Of a DNA stretch of 64,000 bases, positions 3,124 through 38,372 are shown piece by piece. This DNA comes from Escherichia coli O127:H6 str. E2348/69 (GTDB lineage: Bacteria; Pseudomonadota; Gammaproteobacteria; Enterobacterales; Enterobacteriaceae), in the NCBI RefSeq assembly GCF_000026545.1, contig NC_011601.1. One strand, given 5' to 3'. Position numbers and translations under genes: made by a program. Within the stretch, counting starts at the first letter, position 1; each line of letters starts with the position of its first letter. A model generated the notes under the pieces. The model did not search any database. It had not been told where the DNA came from and worked only from the letters and a program-made list of their open reading frames with translations.

Positions 3124-3675
3124 ATGCAAGATATTACAAACATCGCAGTGACTGGCGAAGATGGCGTGGTGACGTATGCCGACGGCAGTAAAGAGGAGTT
3201 CCAGTGCAGCGGAACCGTTGCGACCATCATTGCAAGTCTTGCAACGACACTCGAGAAAGAACGCAAAATGCGCATCGCCACCGGCGACCGCCTGCGCCGC
3301 ATGTACACCCGCGACAGTGATATGATTTCCCGCGGTTTGAATGGCACGTCTGCTACTTCCACGGCACCGACAGCAATGAATGCTGAGTTCATGCGTCTGG
3401 TACGTGCCGTAGCGCCGAAATACGATTCAGCACTGCCCGACGCCGACCCGCGCATCGTTGCGCTCGATGTGCTGCGCTACGCCCCTGCTGAGGCGTTCAG
3501 CGCCGTACACCCTACCCCAATGTCAGAAATCCAGCTGGATCAGGCTATCGATATACTCGAGCAGGTTGGCGACTACATGAAAGCAAACAATATCGCTCCG
3601 AAAATAATTTCTACAGGAGACGCAATCCGCAGCATCAATGCTGACAACGCCACCTTCTGGGGCAAAAAACACTAA
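3124..3675 (+). CDS. Hypothetical protein, 183 aa (cargo operon 1, gene 1)
   Basis: A GAGG SD lies about 9 nt upstream of the ATG. I recognise no family. The C-terminal motif INADNATFW is shared with the next ORF. Confidence 0.65.
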   Translation: MQDITNIAVTGEDGVVTYADGSKEEFQCSGTVATIIASLATTLEKERKMRIATGDRLRRMYTRDSDMISRGLNGTSATSTAPTAMNAEFMRLVRAVAPKYDSALPDADPRIVALDVLRYAPAEAFSAVHPTPMSEIQLDQAIDILEQVGDYMKANNIAPKIISTGDAIRSINADNATFWGKKH

Positions 3676-3688
3676 AGAGATATGAAGC

Positions 3689-3877
3689 ATGTCTATCTAT
3701 GACCCGAAATTAGCCGCAGGCAACCCACAGCGCGCCCACCGCCCAATGCTGACCCGTCAGGATCTTGAAACGGCAAAGGCACGCAATAACTTCGATCGCC
3801 AGAGTCGCAACCTGCAGCAACTCAACGAATCAAATGCACGGTTCTGGAGTGAACAGAATGAGAAAGCCAAACGTTAA
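3689..3877 (+). CDS. Hypothetical small protein, 62 aa (cargo operon 1, gene 2)
   Basis: It starts 13 nt after gene 1. It carries LNESNARFW, similar to the gene 1 C-terminus. Its 3' end overlaps the gene 3 start by 20 nt. Confidence 0.5.
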   Translation: MSIYDPKLAAGNPQRAHRPMLTRQDLETAKARNNFDRQSRNLQQLNESNARFWSEQNEKAKR

Positions 3878-4034
3878 GCCGGTCCTGCTGTCCGCCGAGC
3901 AGATGCAGGCCATACGCAACATTCAGGAACGTGAACGCCAGCGCTCCAATCTCGGCGTCGCTCCCACCGTTCACCAGATTGCCCGCGGCCTCATGGCTAA
4001 GGCTCTGGCCTCACTGGCAAGCGAGGGCGCGTAA
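3858..4034 (+). CDS. Small putative ribbon-helix-helix-like protein, 58 aa (cargo operon 1, gene 3)
   Basis: The ATG at 3858 has a GGAG SD 8 nt upstream, within the longer track ORF 3765-4034. MRKPNVKPVLLSAEQMQAIRNIQERERQR...TVHQIARGLMAKALASL has a strand-helix-helix pattern. The stop overlaps the next start as TAATG. Confidence 0.5.
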   Translation: MRKPNVKPVLLSAEQMQAIRNIQERERQRSNLGVAPTVHQIARGLMAKALASLASEGA

Positions 4035-4765
4035 TGGGCGCCATTCACCAGATATATGAGCAGGAAATGTTCTATAACTGGATAGGCGATGGTAAACGAT
4101 GTGTAGCATTCCACGAAGCGGGCCATGCAGTAGCCGCATGGCTTATTCGCTTAGATATGCAGGTTATCGCCATTATGGATGAATCCGGCTACGTTGCTGG
4201 CGAACATGTACATGAAGCCCAGTGTTTGGGCGTTGTTAAACACGGCATAATCCACAGCCACGATCTCAGGCGTTTGCGGGAGAGTAAATCTGGTGTAGTT
4301 GGGCACGATGGCAAAGTTATCCCTTTCATACGCTACTACGCGGAAGGTATAAAGCGCGATGCAACAAAGGCCGCTTTTGTAGCCCTCGCTGGACCAGTAA
4401 GCGAAGCCATTTACGAAAATAACGAAATTTTCAATATAAAGTATTCACTCCCTCACCGCTATGACATGGCTAACGTAAATGACATGCTCGATTTAATATG
4501 TGCCACGGATAAGCGAATTAACAGGAAGTTAATGCTTTCTAAACTTGTTGAAAAGACCAAATTCCTCATGACTCAATACTGGCCGGAAGTAGGAAAAATA
4601 GCGCATTTGCTTGAGCGGGATAACATTGTTAATGGCCGCGATGTTAGCTCGCTAATCGGCCTCAACGTCATTGACCGGGCAACGCCATTTTTGGTATCTG
4701 ACTTGAGCAGTACATTTGCTCATCTCCCGTACTCGTCCCTGCCTCCGAATGAATTAGCAACTTGA
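4034..4765 (+). CDS. Stand-alone FtsH-like (peptidase M41-type) zinc metalloprotease domain protein, 243 aa, with no AAA+ module and no TM segment
   Basis: FHEAGHAVAAW (HEAGH at nt 4112-4126) matches the FtsH zinc site. Later segments (VALAGPVSEAIY, MANVNDMLDLI, KIAHLLERDNIVNGRDVSSLI) parallel the FtsH protease domain by eye. There is no Walker A/B. Confidence 0.7.
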   Translation: MGAIHQIYEQEMFYNWIGDGKRCVAFHEAGHAVAAWLIRLDMQVIAIMDESGYVAGEHVHEAQCLGVVKHGIIHSHDLRRLRESKSGVVGHDGKVIPFIRYYAEGIKRDATKAAFVALAGPVSEAIYENNEIFNIKYSLPHRYDMANVNDMLDLICATDKRINRKLMLSKLVEKTKFLMTQYWPEVGKIAHLLERDNIVNGRDVSSLIGLNVIDRATPFLVSDLSSTFAHLPYSSLPPNELAT

Positions 4766-4777
4766 AGACAGTAAAGT

Positions 4778-4802
4778 AGCCATGCATTTAACACGCATGG
4801 CT
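4778..4802. terminator. Bidirectional hairpin between the two convergent cargo operons
   Basis: A perfect 8-bp stem AGCCATGC / GCATGGCT with a 9-nt loop lies in the 47-nt gap between the stops at 4765 and 4813. Confidence 0.55.
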
Positions 4803-4812
4803 ATGTGAACAT

Positions 4813-6036
4813 TTAAGAATTAGAGCGCTTAGGCGATCGCGTAAATTGCACTAAAGCCCCTTTATGATCGTTAGCCTGCACATCACGATGCTCAACCAAC
4901 ATAGATTTTAATTTTGCCAGATGCACAACAGCAGCCTTCTTGCCAGTCAGGTACCCCTCGGGCAAACCAGCAATCATTTCCACATCAATAGCAGATAAAC
5001 CTGCGAATGCAGCAAGCCGTTCAACTGAAATGATTCCAGACGATGCCAGCAATTCAATAGTACGTTTCAACAAACGTGGTTTTTCAGGCTCACGATAATC
5101 ATCTCCCGGCTCTGATTTCGCTCCCCAACGTGCTGAACGACGCTTATAAAGATTTTGTTTCTCTTCTTCCGTAATAATATGCAGCACATGTAAACGCATG
5201 ATACTTGCCGCAACGGAAATACCATAGCGTTGTTTAATTAAAAGCAAGCTATCTAATGTTACCGGGGTCCTAATTTCTTCGGCAAATGTCTCAGCAGGAA
5301 GCAGCAGTGCTCCCGCAAATTTATGAGCCTGACTTTCCTTCAGCTTATAACGTTCGGCTTCGAGTTCGTTGCCAACATAGCGGTGAAGGATCAGATGACC
5401 AATTTCGTGAGCAAGGTCAAATCTGCTACGAAAAGCATTACCTTTATCTGAAGAGAGGAGAACAAAAGGAACACCTAAAGTCTCACTCCAGGCAGAAAGC
5501 CCTTCAATCTGCGCAACGCCTGTTTCTTCTCTAATAACGATAATACCATTACTCTCTGCGGCTAAAGCAAGATCCGGTATTTCCTTTGTACCAAGATTCC
5601 AAAGAGCACGGCACTCATTAGCAGCGTCTTCAATATCTGCATCACTAATTTCATCAATGTTTGTAAAGCTACGACGCGGTAGTTTTAGCTCCGGCAGATC
5701 TACAAACTCAGTCAGCTTAGTAACTAACTCATTAGCCCAATGGATTCGAGTTTCTAACATTGCTCGTGCAGCTACATGAGCTGATGCATTGCTTCTGAAC
5801 AGAGGCTTTGACATCCCCTTCAACAGAGGGCGCGTAAACCATTCAGGTGTAACATTTACGACAGTGGCCAGACGTTCTAAAGCCTCAGACTCTGGAGCCT
5901 GTTGACCGGAACGCCATTTGCTAATGGTTGCTGGTGATACACCCACCATAGTAGCTAATTGAGTTTGTGATAGCCGCCGGGCGGCTAGTACCTGTGCTAA
6001 CCTGCCCGGTTGAAATTCGGCGACGCCTCGGCTCAT
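4813..6036 (-). CDS. XRE-family HTH fused to an ImmA/IrrE-type (M78, COG2856) zinc peptidase domain with a C-terminal extension, 407 aa
   Basis: The N-terminus LAQVLAARRLSQTQLATMVGVSPATISKWRSGQQAP is a classic XRE HTH. HEIGHLILH is at aa 210-218 (HEIGH at nt 5395-5409). The start overlaps the upstream gene stop as ATGA, with a GAGGAAG SD. Confidence 0.8.
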   Translation of the reverse strand: MSRGVAEFQPGRLAQVLAARRLSQTQLATMVGVSPATISKWRSGQQAPESEALERLATVVNVTPEWFTRPLLKGMSKPLFRSNASAHVAARAMLETRIHWANELVTKLTEFVDLPELKLPRRSFTNIDEISDADIEDAANECRALWNLGTKEIPDLALAAESNGIIVIREETGVAQIEGLSAWSETLGVPFVLLSSDKGNAFRSRFDLAHEIGHLILHRYVGNELEAERYKLKESQAHKFAGALLLPAETFAEEIRTPVTLDSLLLIKQRYGISVAASIMRLHVLHIITEEEKQNLYKRRSARWGAKSEPGDDYREPEKPRLLKRTIELLASSGIISVERLAAFAGLSAIDVEMIAGLPEGYLTGKKAAVVHLAKLKSMLVEHRDVQANDHKGALVQFTRSPKRSNS

Positions 6037-6680
6037 ACATTATCTTCCTCGGTTCCATCTTTTCTGATAATGCCCCTTTTGAGCCCAGGGAATGCATTAT
6101 CTTCTTGGGACGGAACTACATCATATCGGGTTAAAAAAAGTTCAAGTGGCTCATGAAAAACCCAGCGCTTCCCATCAGAACTTGGTACAACAAGCTCTAT
6201 AGACATCGGAGCTTCAGGCTGAATCTGCAACGAACCGGAAAAACGGCATACTACGAACAGTGTAGCTTTTGGCACATCAGAACCATCGGAGAATAAATCC
6301 GGTTGCACCATTTTTTCCACAAACACGTTCTCAGAAATGAGTTCTTGCTTACGTTTGCTACGGAATAATCTCTTCCACTGGTTATCATTGTAGCTTTCAC
6401 GAACAATCGTGAATATACCACTATGGCCTTCTACAATACGGTTACCACGCAGCTTTCCAGGATTACAACCGTTGGCCTCAAACACCTCATAAATAGTTTC
6501 ATTCAGGTTTAAATGACGATCATAACCAAGCGCGGTCGATCTGTGATCTAGCTTCTTCTTTTGAGCATAATCGTAAGAACGCTTTGATGCCGCGTAAATC
6601 GCGTCAGAAAGGGCCATGAAGAGTTGTTTTGAAACATTCTGAACGATGAGATCTGCCACTTTGGATTTTTTCACGACCAT
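6033..6680 (-). CDS. Hypothetical protein, 215 aa, first gene of cargo operon 2
   Basis: It is an intact ORF with an AGGA SD. It is translationally coupled (ATGA) to the XRE-ImmA gene. I recognise no family. Confidence 0.65.
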   Translation of the reverse strand: MVVKKSKVADLIVQNVSKQLFMALSDAIYAASKRSYDYAQKKKLDHRSTALGYDRHLNLNETIYEVFEANGCNPGKLRGNRIVEGHSGIFTIVRESYNDNQWKRLFRSKRKQELISENVFVEKMVQPDLFSDGSDVPKATLFVVCRFSGSLQIQPEAPMSIELVVPSSDGKRWVFHEPLELFLTRYDVVPSQEDNAFPGLKRGIIRKDGTEEDNV

Positions 6681-6683
6681 TTC

Positions 6684-6702
6684 CTATCACTGTCACTGAT
6701 AG
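6684..6702. promoter_or_regulatory. Operator-like inverted repeat CTATCA-N7-TGATAG at the start of cargo operon 2
   Basis: CTATCACTGTCACTGATAG lies 4 nt upstream of the 6680 start codon, overlaps the SD, and contains an internal tandem TCACTG. Confidence 0.45.
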
Positions 6703-7209
6703 CCGTGATTTTATATCAGTATTTTTTCGTGTGTCCATAACGCAATCAATTATTTTTTCCTTTGTCAGCAAGAATTATATAAAAAGCACTATCATGACAG
6801 GATTTGGGCCACTAACCTTTCACAGACTCTTGAAGTCCTAGAAAAAAGCAATGGCACAAGGTGTCCTTGCCGGGAGAAAAATCATCTGGCTACCAGCAAC
6901 CTTATAGATTCCAGATCAACGTAATATCAAAGTAAAACGTCCATTTCCGGTACCATATTTGGTCATTACGACGGGGGAAACTTATACCCACTGCTGCCCC
7001 ATCGTCAGCGCCGACAGGGACCTATGCCGCAAGGTATAAGGCAAAATTGGCATTTTCGCTATTCCCCCTGCCCGTATTTTTTGGCTTACTGGAATTTCTC
7101 TATCTAACACAATGAACTTGAGGCTATTCCGACAGGGAGAAAAGCGATCTACGCCTGACCGCCTGCCTCAGCAATCATCCAGGCAAGTACGTGTGTAAGG
7201 CTAACGCGA

Positions 7210-7890
7210 ATGAGTGATTTTTATTCCCCTCTACCAAGCTATGATCTTGTCCGGGCAGCGGAGATGCTGACTGATAAGGGGGCAAATTGTACCGGTAACG
7301 ATTTATTGGAACTATGGAACCAAGGCGTTATCGAGTTGTGTTTTTCTCTGCCGGACTACATTGCTTGTGAAGATGTTAATTTTCCCGGGCATGGTCACAG
7401 CATTTTGTTATCCGTGGATCCGATTAGCTTCAACCTTTTCTGGCTAAATGTTGATTACCCACCGAACTTAAATGCTAACTTTTCTGTGAAAGAATATGGC
7501 TCAGATAGTGAATTCCATGAGCAGTCCCTATGGATACCAACAGAACCGCACTACAACACTCACCATGATAACGGGGAAGGGCTTTGCGAAGCGTTAAGGA
7601 ATACTTATGGCCGGGAAAATTTACGAATACCAGGTGTCGAATTGCAAAAGGTTTGGCGCTTTTTGATCGGTCAGCCTTATGAAAAAAAGCCAACGCCTGA
7701 GCGTATCACCGCTAAGCAATGCCGCTTTATCGTCGCATTACTCAGATCGTATAACCTGACTGACGATGATTTTAAGGGGAGCATTAGGGACCTGAGAATT
7801 AAGATATCTAACCGGATCCCTTCAATCGGTGATCCTGAAATCGATGATAATACCCTTACTGACTGGCTGAAGAAGGGAGGGGTTCGGTAG
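7210..7890 (+). CDS. Hypothetical protein, 226 aa, first gene of the rightward alpA operon
   Basis: It is an intact ORF after a 529-bp intergenic region. I recognise no family. Confidence 0.6.
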   Translation: MSDFYSPLPSYDLVRAAEMLTDKGANCTGNDLLELWNQGVIELCFSLPDYIACEDVNFPGHGHSILLSVDPISFNLFWLNVDYPPNLNANFSVKEYGSDSEFHEQSLWIPTEPHYNTHHDNGEGLCEALRNTYGRENLRIPGVELQKVWRFLIGQPYEKKPTPERITAKQCRFIVALLRSYNLTDDDFKGSIRDLRIKISNRIPSIGDPEIDDNTLTDWLKKGGVR

Positions 7891-7891
7891 C

Positions 7892-7928
7892 TGAGTTTTC
7901 ATAACTCCGATGAGTTTTCAATAACTCC
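7892..7928 (+). repeat. Tandem direct repeat TGAGTTTTCA(A)TAACTCC x2
   Basis: The copies are at 7892-7908 and 7911-7928 and differ by one extra A. They lie immediately after the 7890 stop. Confidence 0.7.
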
Positions 7929-7957
7929 CCCACCCGTAACCACCTACCCCGTAGCCT

Positions 7958-38277: not shown

Positions 38278-38372
38278 GGAAGATCGTCGTCTCCGGTGAG
38301 GCGGCTGGACTTCAAATCCAGTTGGGGCCGCCAGCGGTCCCGGGCAGGTTCGACTCCTGTGATCTTCCGCCA
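38278..38372 (+). tRNA. selC: tRNA-Sec (anticodon UCA), 95 nt
   Basis: GGAAGATCGTCGTCTCCGGTGAGGCGGCTGGACTTCAAATCCAGTTGGGGCCGCCAGCGGTCCCGGGCAGGTTCGACTCCTGTGATCTTCCGCCA has a long variable arm, a TCA anticodon and a CCA end. Confidence 0.97.

Follow-up and report, generated by a model that had tools for sequence, protein, structure and literature searches.

The rmrTA locus

The DNA analysed here is a stretch of 64,000 nucleotides (hereafter the window) from Escherichia coli O127:H6 str. E2348/69 (RefSeq assembly GCF_000026545.1, contig NC_011601.1), and its subject is a pair of overlapping genes on the minus strand, rmrT and rmrA. RefSeq labels their products in this strain 'hypothetical protein' and 'helix-turn-helix domain-containing protein', respectively. 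We consider it very probable that the pair is a toxin-antitoxin (TA) and anti-phage defence cassette of the RosmerTA type, which occupies the int-alpA slot of a satellite as exchangeable cargo, and RosmerTA defence/TA cassette would be a better label for it. The type of system is known and can be called with standard defence-finder models; the toxin subtype is uncharacterised. A first-pass annotation, made by a model from the sequence alone, had described an open reading frame (ORF) of 215 aa overlapping by ATGA an ORF of 407 aa, and the coordinates agree with that description:

6033..6680, minus strand: rmrT, predicted toxin, 215 aa from ATG 6680 (ORF; PADLOC RmrT model PDLC03937)
4813..6036, minus strand: rmrA, predicted antitoxin and autorepressor, 407 aa (ORF; PADLOC RmrA model PDLC03951; Pfam HTH_3 and Peptidase_M78)
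6033..6036, minus strand: ATGA stop/start overlap of rmrT and rmrA (sequence; same overlap in orthologous loci)
5836..6003, minus strand: XRE-type helix-turn-helix (HTH) of RmrA, residues 12-67 (Pfam HTH_3, HTH_31 and HTH_26)
5191..5559, minus strand: Peptidase_M78 (ImmA/IrrE) domain of RmrA, residues 160-282 (Pfam PF06114, E=4.9e-18)
5395-5409, minus strand: HEIGH zinc motif of RmrA, within the Peptidase_M78 domain
4777..4803, minus strand: hairpin directly 3' of the rmrA stop, between the convergent rmrA and 243-aa gene (terminator scan)

The ATGA overlap, implying translational coupling of rmrT and rmrA, is a prediction from the arrangement of the two genes. The Shine-Dalgarno (SD) sequence AGGA (6685-6682) stands 1 nt from ATG 6680 and 7 nt from GTG 6674; because of this spacing, and because the majority of RmrT orthologues are called as proteins of 213 aa with the N-terminus MKKSK, the true start of rmrT is probably GTG 6674, with a product of 213 aa. 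The pair is convergent with a 243-aa gene carrying a HEAGH motif (on the side of the FtsH-like operon of the first-pass annotation) and divergent from the side of the 226-aa ORF and alpA, in the orientation first reported. The hairpin at 4777-4803, which is poor in its T-tract, is a possible terminator.

RmrA, a fused helix-turn-helix and peptidase protein

RmrA matched the PADLOC model PDLC03951 with E=3.5e-125 over residues 1-399, which against a model of 400 positions is its full length, and 13 more PADLOC RmrA models also matched the 407-aa protein. Pfam places HTH_3 at residues 14-67 (E=9e-13) and Peptidase_M78 at residues 160-282 (E=4.9e-18), the latter with the sequence HEIGHLILH, and both the N-terminal XRE HTH and the zinc peptidase had been recognised correctly from the letters. 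H210, E211, H214 and E234 are invariant across 9 paired RmrA proteins and the zinc site is intact, E234 being the likely third zinc ligand. The paired RmrA partners, like the experimentally verified RmrA of OLC-716, all have HExxH, the Glu downstream of it and an RSRFD motif without variation. PHROG 2439 matched RmrA over its full length. Matches to the PADLOC models capP (E=1.7e-18) and capH (E=1.3e-6) were found as well, and a sequence match in the PDB was to CapP (7t5t, E=3.6e-8).

The C-terminus had been described as about 150 unassigned residues. It amounts to ~125 aa beyond the Pfam peptidase domain and, because the PADLOC model spans residues 1-399, it is by sequence a part of the full-length RmrA architecture. 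This region contains a short C-terminal motif (residues ~388-400; window ~4837-4875, minus strand), placed beyond a variable linker and kept in the orthologues of the subtype, which reads hydrophobic-hydrophobic-x-F-[S/T/P]-R, here ALVQFTR, and often has a basic tail (PKRSNS) next to it. The verified RmrA of OLC-716, which is shorter, does not have this motif; by its sequence it may serve for docking or as a degron.

RmrT, a predicted toxin of a small catalogued family

RmrT matched the PADLOC model PDLC03937 with E=8.1e-16 over residues 5-213 (model of 221 positions). The same model matched all the full-length members of the family that were aligned (59/59, best E=1.5e-52), and this subtype is therefore already within the catalogued set of RmrT proteins. 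Pfam, NCBIfam and PHROG searches gave no match for the E2348/69 sequence and no recurrent match for the 59 members, while a PDB sequence search with the family profile returned only noise (E>=0.26). The first description of the 215-aa protein as belonging to no recognised family thus holds for Pfam, NCBIfam and PHROGs and is corrected by PADLOC.

A word-indexed search with RmrT recovered only relatives of at least 50% identity, from Enterobacterales and Aeromonas, and a locus search with a narrow alignment recovered 3 species-representative genomes. An exhaustive profile hidden Markov model (HMM) search of 1.84 billion representatives delimited a family of 97 clusters, nearly all of 205-225 aa. 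The E2348/69 allele of rmrTA is present in 7 of 5426 complete E. coli genomes, and tblastn of RmrT against a phage collection and a plasmid collection gave no match. The protein is basic (pI 8.4), has a mass of ~24 kDa and shows no transmembrane segment, with a maximum Kyte-Doolittle (KD) value of 0.86, and is on these sequence properties predicted to be soluble.

Linkage of the two genes and their genomic contexts

In every one of the 16 loci whose downstream DNA could be read (~13 distinct contexts), an RmrA-type gene stands directly 3' of the RmrT homologue, and this linkage holds at profile E-values down to 8.5e-7. The partner genes encode proteins of 400-410 aa with HTH_3 and Peptidase_M78, and the junction is usually the same 4-nt overlap. 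No third gene is conserved across the RmrT-family loci examined, and the genes neighbouring rmrTA in E2348/69 gave no PADLOC match. RosmerTA membership is thereby found on every in silico feature, namely the antitoxin architecture, the HMMs of both families and the conserved linkage, and the allele swap with the verified system, described below, lends it additional support.

The elements that carry the cassette are diverse. In Serratia fonticola (L001) it adjoins the integrase of a P22-like prophage at yicC, and in a siphophage-type prophage of Aeromonas (L002) it lies inside the structural module, between head/tail genes and the tape-measure gene. In L004 and L005 it stands by Ash, AlpA and a DUF927 primase in a P4-like satellite, in L014 near BrxR-like and other genes, and in L017 in a chromosomal context. 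The C4 antisense RNA (81 bits) and the isrK RNA (60 bits) abut the cassette in L004 (Rfam; 5882-6095). At L004 6001-6867 the N-terminus of the database protein P0040 (288 aa) is extended over isrK, and its start is probably mis-called, the true start being near L004 6220. Another locus with the same Rosmer subtype, in a metagenome-assembled genome of Pluralibacter (L008, 3401-3763), lies ~2 kb from the gene for tmRNA (ssrA), a classical integration site of islands.

A satellite backbone with alternative Rosmer alleles

In E2348/69, rmrTA lies within an 11-kb island between yicC and dinD, whose order is tyrosine integrase, small ORFs, the 243-aa HEAGH protein, rmrTA, int-alpA RNA, the 226-aa ORF, alpA, an Icd-like gene and a P4-type primase. 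This island is a satellite, similar to P4 and to phage-inducible chromosomal islands (PICI), inserted beside yicC. One RNA feature marks the slot:

7117..7184, plus strand: int-alpA RNA motif, part of the island backbone and not of the Rosmer system (Rfam RF02996, 39.4 bits for a gathering threshold of 35.8)

The same RNA is found at 4103-4170 of L019, at 6038-6105 of L020 and in the DNA flanking the cloned OLC-716 system, the scores ranging from 39 to 46 bits. Folded alone, the region gave no signal of stability (z = -0.24), and its assignment rests on the Rfam covariance model; a literature search on the int-alpA RNA found no paper.

Ten further complete E. coli genomes, among them O55:H7 DEC5B and several Shiga toxin-producing strains, carry the same island backbone, with ~99% identity on both sides of the slot. 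The slot of these sibling islands (L019, L020) is filled by a pair of 239 aa and 370 aa whose translations are 100% identical to the verified RmrT and RmrA of OLC-716. The sibling slot (L019 4285-6126 of NZ_CP027388.1, and also L020) corresponds to positions 4694-7955 of the window and has in addition a 352-aa hypothetical gene. The backbone of int, alpA, icd and primase is retained in the sibling islands while the Rosmer allele differs: one satellite backbone hosts alternative Rosmer alleles in one hotspot, which is a natural allele swap. Because the sibling islands have another Rosmer pair in the same slot, rmrTA is exchangeable defence cargo and not the master repressor of the island. Two unrelated toxin subtypes, each with its own RmrA, in the same slot also constitute a matched pair for probing the phage specificity of Rosmer systems.

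Promoter and candidate operator

The region upstream of rmrT presents the following features:

6708..6737, minus strand: sigma-70-like promoter, -35 TGGACA at 6737-6732 and -10 TAAAAT at 6713-6708, spacer 18 (promoter scan, 10/12 matches)
6734-6723, minus strand: conserved box ACACACGAAAAA overlapping the -35 (upstream alignment)
6684..6702, minus strand: 19-bp near-perfect palindrome CTATCAGTGACAGTGATAG between the -10 and the start codon, over the AGGA SD; candidate RmrA operator

The palindrome, which had first been noticed as an operator-like inverted repeat on the first SD, does overlap AGGA and is present as a single copy in the 64-kb window, with 0 matches expected by chance; scanning of this window revealed no second copy at the int, alpA or primase promoters. 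Upstream conservation was read from an alignment of the 95 nt 5' of rmrT in 12 loci. Although the proteins share just 22-55% identity, these loci conserve both the -10 sequence (T)ATAAAAT and, over the -35, a box ACAC(N)CGAAA, and in most of the distant loci a second box, TTAACGAAA, lies just past the -10, ~31-32 bp from the first. The CGAAA box taken alone does not occur across the window above chance. The palindrome is kept only in relatives of more than 87% identity (the window and L006-L008), and there it replaces the second box. The alignment thus predicts an operator whose position is conserved and whose sequence is clade-specific, and autorepression by the HTH of RmrA can reasonably be inferred from this layout.

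Comparison with known systems

RosmerTA was described (Millman et al. 2022) as pairing a toxin of unknown function, encoded first, with a Zn-peptidase antitoxin. The same study verified the system from OLC-716 as anti-phage in E. coli and could not transform its rmrA deletion; the verified RmrT and RmrA have 239 and 370 aa (Table S2 of the same article). It shares with the E2348/69 pair the toxin-first operon of two genes and the XRE-HTH/M78 antitoxin, the two RmrAs aligning with 27% identity over 330 aa (E=3e-26), as well as the identical slot by the int-alpA RNA, in sibling islands of the same backbone at yicC. It differs by its toxin, which has 239 aa versus 215 aa, is unrelated in sequence and falls under PADLOC PDLC03935 instead of PDLC03937, and by its antitoxin, since RmrA of E2348/69 has 407 aa and a longer C-terminus. 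Unrelated toxins standing beside homologous RmrAs fit the view of the literature that RmrTs are diverse toxins with one type of antitoxin. The first-pass proposal of a toxic effector restrained by the HTH-peptidase is essentially right as to the kind of system, which the RmrT and RmrA models support, and gives way as to novelty: at the family level the database matches identify the pair as RosmerTA, a system already published in 2022, identical in architecture and in the order of its genes.

RipAB (Spr1630/Spr1629) of Streptococcus pneumoniae is another TA of the Rosmer family, in which ripB is essential only when ripA is present and which is ClpX-dependent. RipB, which combines an HTH with an ImmA-like domain, neutralises RipA in trans, and the toxicity of RipA is suppressed by mutations in the hydrophobic pocket of DnaN, with which RipA interacts in two-hybrid assays. 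The antitoxins are related (spr1629 model, E=1.4e-46) and in both systems the upstream toxin has no known domain. They differ in that RmrA remains under the equivalog cutoff (159 vs 335 bits) and that RipA acts on the DnaN pocket, the toxins having been compared by description only. In Pectobacteriaceae, transposon sequencing (Tn-seq) found rmrA essential in three species, and clpX essential only in three strains which bear RosmerTA; a Zn-peptidase-type TA of E. coli E101 likewise made clpP essential. The RmrTA of the Gordonia phage Kita confers a narrow-spectrum defence in E. coli, including against BASEL phages (Ernits et al. 2023). It resembles the present pair by its RmrA-type protease antitoxin and its orphan toxin, but the Kita toxin (D5) depolarises the membrane and is predicted to contain transmembrane regions, whereas RmrT of E2348/69 has no hydrophobic segment (maximum KD 0.86) and must therefore act differently.

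The switches ImmR/ImmA of ICEBs1, IrrE/DdrO and CapH/CapP use the same peptidase family and the same logic of an HTH partner, and they offer a model for signal-activated cleavage. In these systems, however, the HTH and the peptidase are separate proteins that regulate a downstream element or effector operon, whereas in RmrA both domains are fused, a single upstream toxin is linked to them and there is no tie to one mobile element. A CapH/CapP arrangement was considered and rejected, as HTH and peptidase are fused here, rmrT is the sole linked gene and the neighbours have no PADLOC match. PD-lambda-2, which consists of a HigB-like first gene, an Xre-peptidase and a third gene resembling a P4 antitoxin (Vassallo 2022), was rejected in the same way: RmrT has no match to HigB or to any other Pfam family, and there is no conserved third gene. 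Finally, SocAB, a type VI TA of Caulobacter, resembles Rosmer systems only by function, with a toxin directed at the beta-clamp and an essential ClpXP, as in Rosmer-bearing strains; SocA is a ClpXP adaptor and not an HTH-peptidase, and SocAB and RipAB were reported to have no homology, in sequence or in structure.

Proposed mechanism and alternative explanations

In the mechanism that we propose, a single promoter would drive rmrT and then rmrA, coupled via the ATGA overlap. By analogy with the toxicity of other Rosmer members, RmrT would be a growth-arresting effector with a fold of its own, and RmrA, as in these members, would neutralise it. The XRE HTH of RmrA probably represses its own promoter, at the palindrome or at the CGAAA boxes around the -10 and the SD. 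RmrT is expected to be released on phage infection, or when the function of RmrA or ClpX(P) is lost, and as a result the infected cell would be arrested or killed, or the island would be stabilised by addiction. The peptidase might cleave RmrA itself or its HTH, in the manner of ImmA and CapP, or it might process the toxin. In this scheme the architecture, the zinc site, the HMM membership, the linkage, the mobility and allele replacement and the promoter/operator layout come from the present analysis; toxicity, antitoxin essentiality, phage defence and ClpX/ClpP dependence are taken from the literature on other members.

Several points weigh against the assignment to RosmerTA and the roles that follow from it. 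No experiments on the E2348/69 pair or on its RmrT subtype were found in the literature, the supplementary tables of Millman et al. have no entry for E2348 or O127, and a literature search on E2348 with transposon, essential genes and antitoxin returned nothing relevant. RmrT has no detectable similarity to the verified RmrT of OLC-716 (BLASTP E=0.095; hhalign probability 0.06%), and the PDLC03937 score of the E2348/69 RmrT taken alone is modest, at 56 bits. RmrA reaches 159.3 bits (E=1.4e-46) against the NCBIfam spr1629 equivalog NF052239, for which the cutoff is 335 bits, and by sequence it is related to this family without being an equivalog. The subtype is rare and absent from the phage and plasmid collections, and its distribution is therefore silent on any benefit in defence. 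The palindrome is not conserved past close relatives, which makes its role as an operator uncertain. The last point comes from PD-lambda-2 (Vassallo 2022), where the Xre-peptidase is itself toxic, so that the assignment of toxin and antitoxin could be reversed.

Among the alternatives, the one that fares best, although we judge it unlikely, is that rmrTA is a plain addiction or stabilisation TA module of the island with no role in phage defence. Type II TA modules typically have this architecture and this ATGA coupling, for several Rosmer members only antitoxin essentiality or physiology, and no defence, has been described (RipAB in competence; rmrA in Tn-seq), and the collections of sequenced phages and plasmids that were searched lack this RmrT subtype. 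However, the Rosmer allele of the sibling slot has demonstrated anti-phage activity, and catalogues list the family among defence systems, with Kita as a second member that defends. In prophages the cassette sits like a moron, where defence cargo is usually found.

Much less probable is a system in which the roles are reversed or more complex, the HTH-peptidase being the toxic effector and the 215-aa protein a neutraliser or phage sensor. This is the situation in PD-lambda-2, where the Xre-peptidase protein B is toxic on overexpression and is rescued by the upstream protein A, and RmrT has neither a recognisable toxic domain nor a significant structural neighbour. Nevertheless, the rmrA deletion was unobtainable in the verified RosmerTA, the upstream gene of RipAB is the toxin while its HTH-peptidase neutralises in trans, rmrA was essential by Tn-seq in three species, and both the HigB-like first gene and the third gene of PD-lambda-2 are absent at rmrTA.

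Least probable, and very unlikely, is the other first-pass proposal, that RmrA is the master repressor of the satellite. In the form considered here, RmrA would be a fused ImmR/ImmA-like switch controlling excision and replication by self-cleavage on helper phage or SOS, with the 215-aa protein as an accessory. M78 peptidases do control HTH repressors in ICEBs1 (ImmA/ImmR) and in the CBASS defence system (CapP/CapH), RmrA does match the capP and capH models and CapP 7t5t, and the operon is divergent from the alpA side with an operator-like palindrome, but the same cassette occurs in unrelated prophages and satellites and in non-regulatory spots such as a phage structural module, the slot of sibling islands with this backbone is taken by another Rosmer allele, the palindrome has a single copy in the window and stands at none of the int, alpA or primase promoters, and other control elements exist, namely the int-alpA RNA and alpA in the island and the C4 immunity RNA in a related satellite. 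An ImmR/ImmA-type master switch was accordingly rejected on the allele swap, the varied contexts and the single palindrome.

Predicted structure of RmrT and a possible link to the sliding clamp

Within the RosmerTA reading, the structure of RmrT was predicted with AlphaFold2. From an alignment of 59 sequences the model reached a mean predicted local distance difference test (pLDDT) score of 92.9 and a predicted template modelling (pTM) score of 0.85; from just 11 close sequences the pLDDT was 63. The predicted fold comprises three N-terminal helices, followed by a five-stranded sheet with three helices. Foldseek with this model found no neighbour at E<=0.001 (PDB E>=0.3, BFVD E>=0.04), and the fold, as modelled, is confidently predicted and has no known relative. 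The weak structural matches were repeatedly to PD-(D/E)xK nucleases (SwaI, NaeI, EcoRV, ThaI, SfiI, Hjc, arenavirus cap-snatching endonucleases and RecE-like proteins). No acidic/lysine triad is conserved in the strands of the family, whose conserved polar residues are G52, R55, H56, N60, E61, R94, S108, N118 (100%), D128, D194 and K201; we regard a nuclease function as unproven as long as no catalytic triad supports it.

The best-conserved surface loop of the model is QPDLF (residues 126-130), with acidic residues next to it. Across the 59 members the loop has Q in 37/59, D or S in 51/59, L, F or M in 56/59 and F or L in 56/59, and one member reads QADMF. The bacterial consensus for binding to the beta-clamp is QL[S/D]LF, which the QPDLF loop resembles. 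The C-terminal tail carries a second motif, Q192-x-D194-x-A196-x-P198-x-L200-K201, which is among the most conserved segments of RmrT and yet lies in a flexible tail modelled with lower confidence; strong conservation in such a tail is a pattern typical of a docking or processing site. The QPDLF loop, the action of RipA on the DnaN pocket, the conserved tail motif and the three reports of ClpX/ClpP essentiality suggest a lead, to which we give a low probability, that this RmrT subtype is a toxin binding the sliding clamp and that the RmrA peptidase neutralises it proteolytically and passes it to ClpXP, in a type-VI-like way and not by simple sequestration. If true, this lead would tie the mechanism of pneumococcal RipA to an enterobacterial defence cassette and would help to explain why ClpX(P) is essential in the presence of Rosmer systems.

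Neighbouring genes and other observations in the window

The 243-aa gene convergent with rmrA (window 4034-4765, plus strand) encodes a protein whose sole recognisable feature is a zinc-protease motif, FHEAGHAV, and which has no ATPase domain. It shows a weak match to Peptidase_M41/FtsH (E=4.5e-4), below the cutoff, and no PADLOC or PHROG match. It is a gene of the backbone, with a 223-aa counterpart in the sibling islands. The 226-aa ORF (window 7210-7890, plus strand), divergent from rmrT, has no family match, and the sibling island L019 holds at 3251-4078 a 275-aa ORF instead. Similarity between the two proteins is confined to ~48 residues at the N-terminus (31% identity, E=0.006); the replacement of one by the other in the sibling islands indicates that this gene varies along with the Rosmer allele.

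Farther downstream, selC (tRNA-Sec; window 38278-38372, plus strand) is the sole tRNA gene of the window, whose GC content of 46.3% is low for E. coli. The locus of enterocyte effacement inserts at selC in enteropathogenic E. coli, and the low GC content together with selC would fit a large AT-rich island situated downstream in the window. Outside the window, past pyrE, a gene for a 'reverse transcriptase family protein' (L018 1-364; NZ_CP059840.2 118591-119550) lies by pyrE-rph-yicC in E2348/69, and this gene beyond pyrE could be a retron or another defence element based on a reverse transcriptase.

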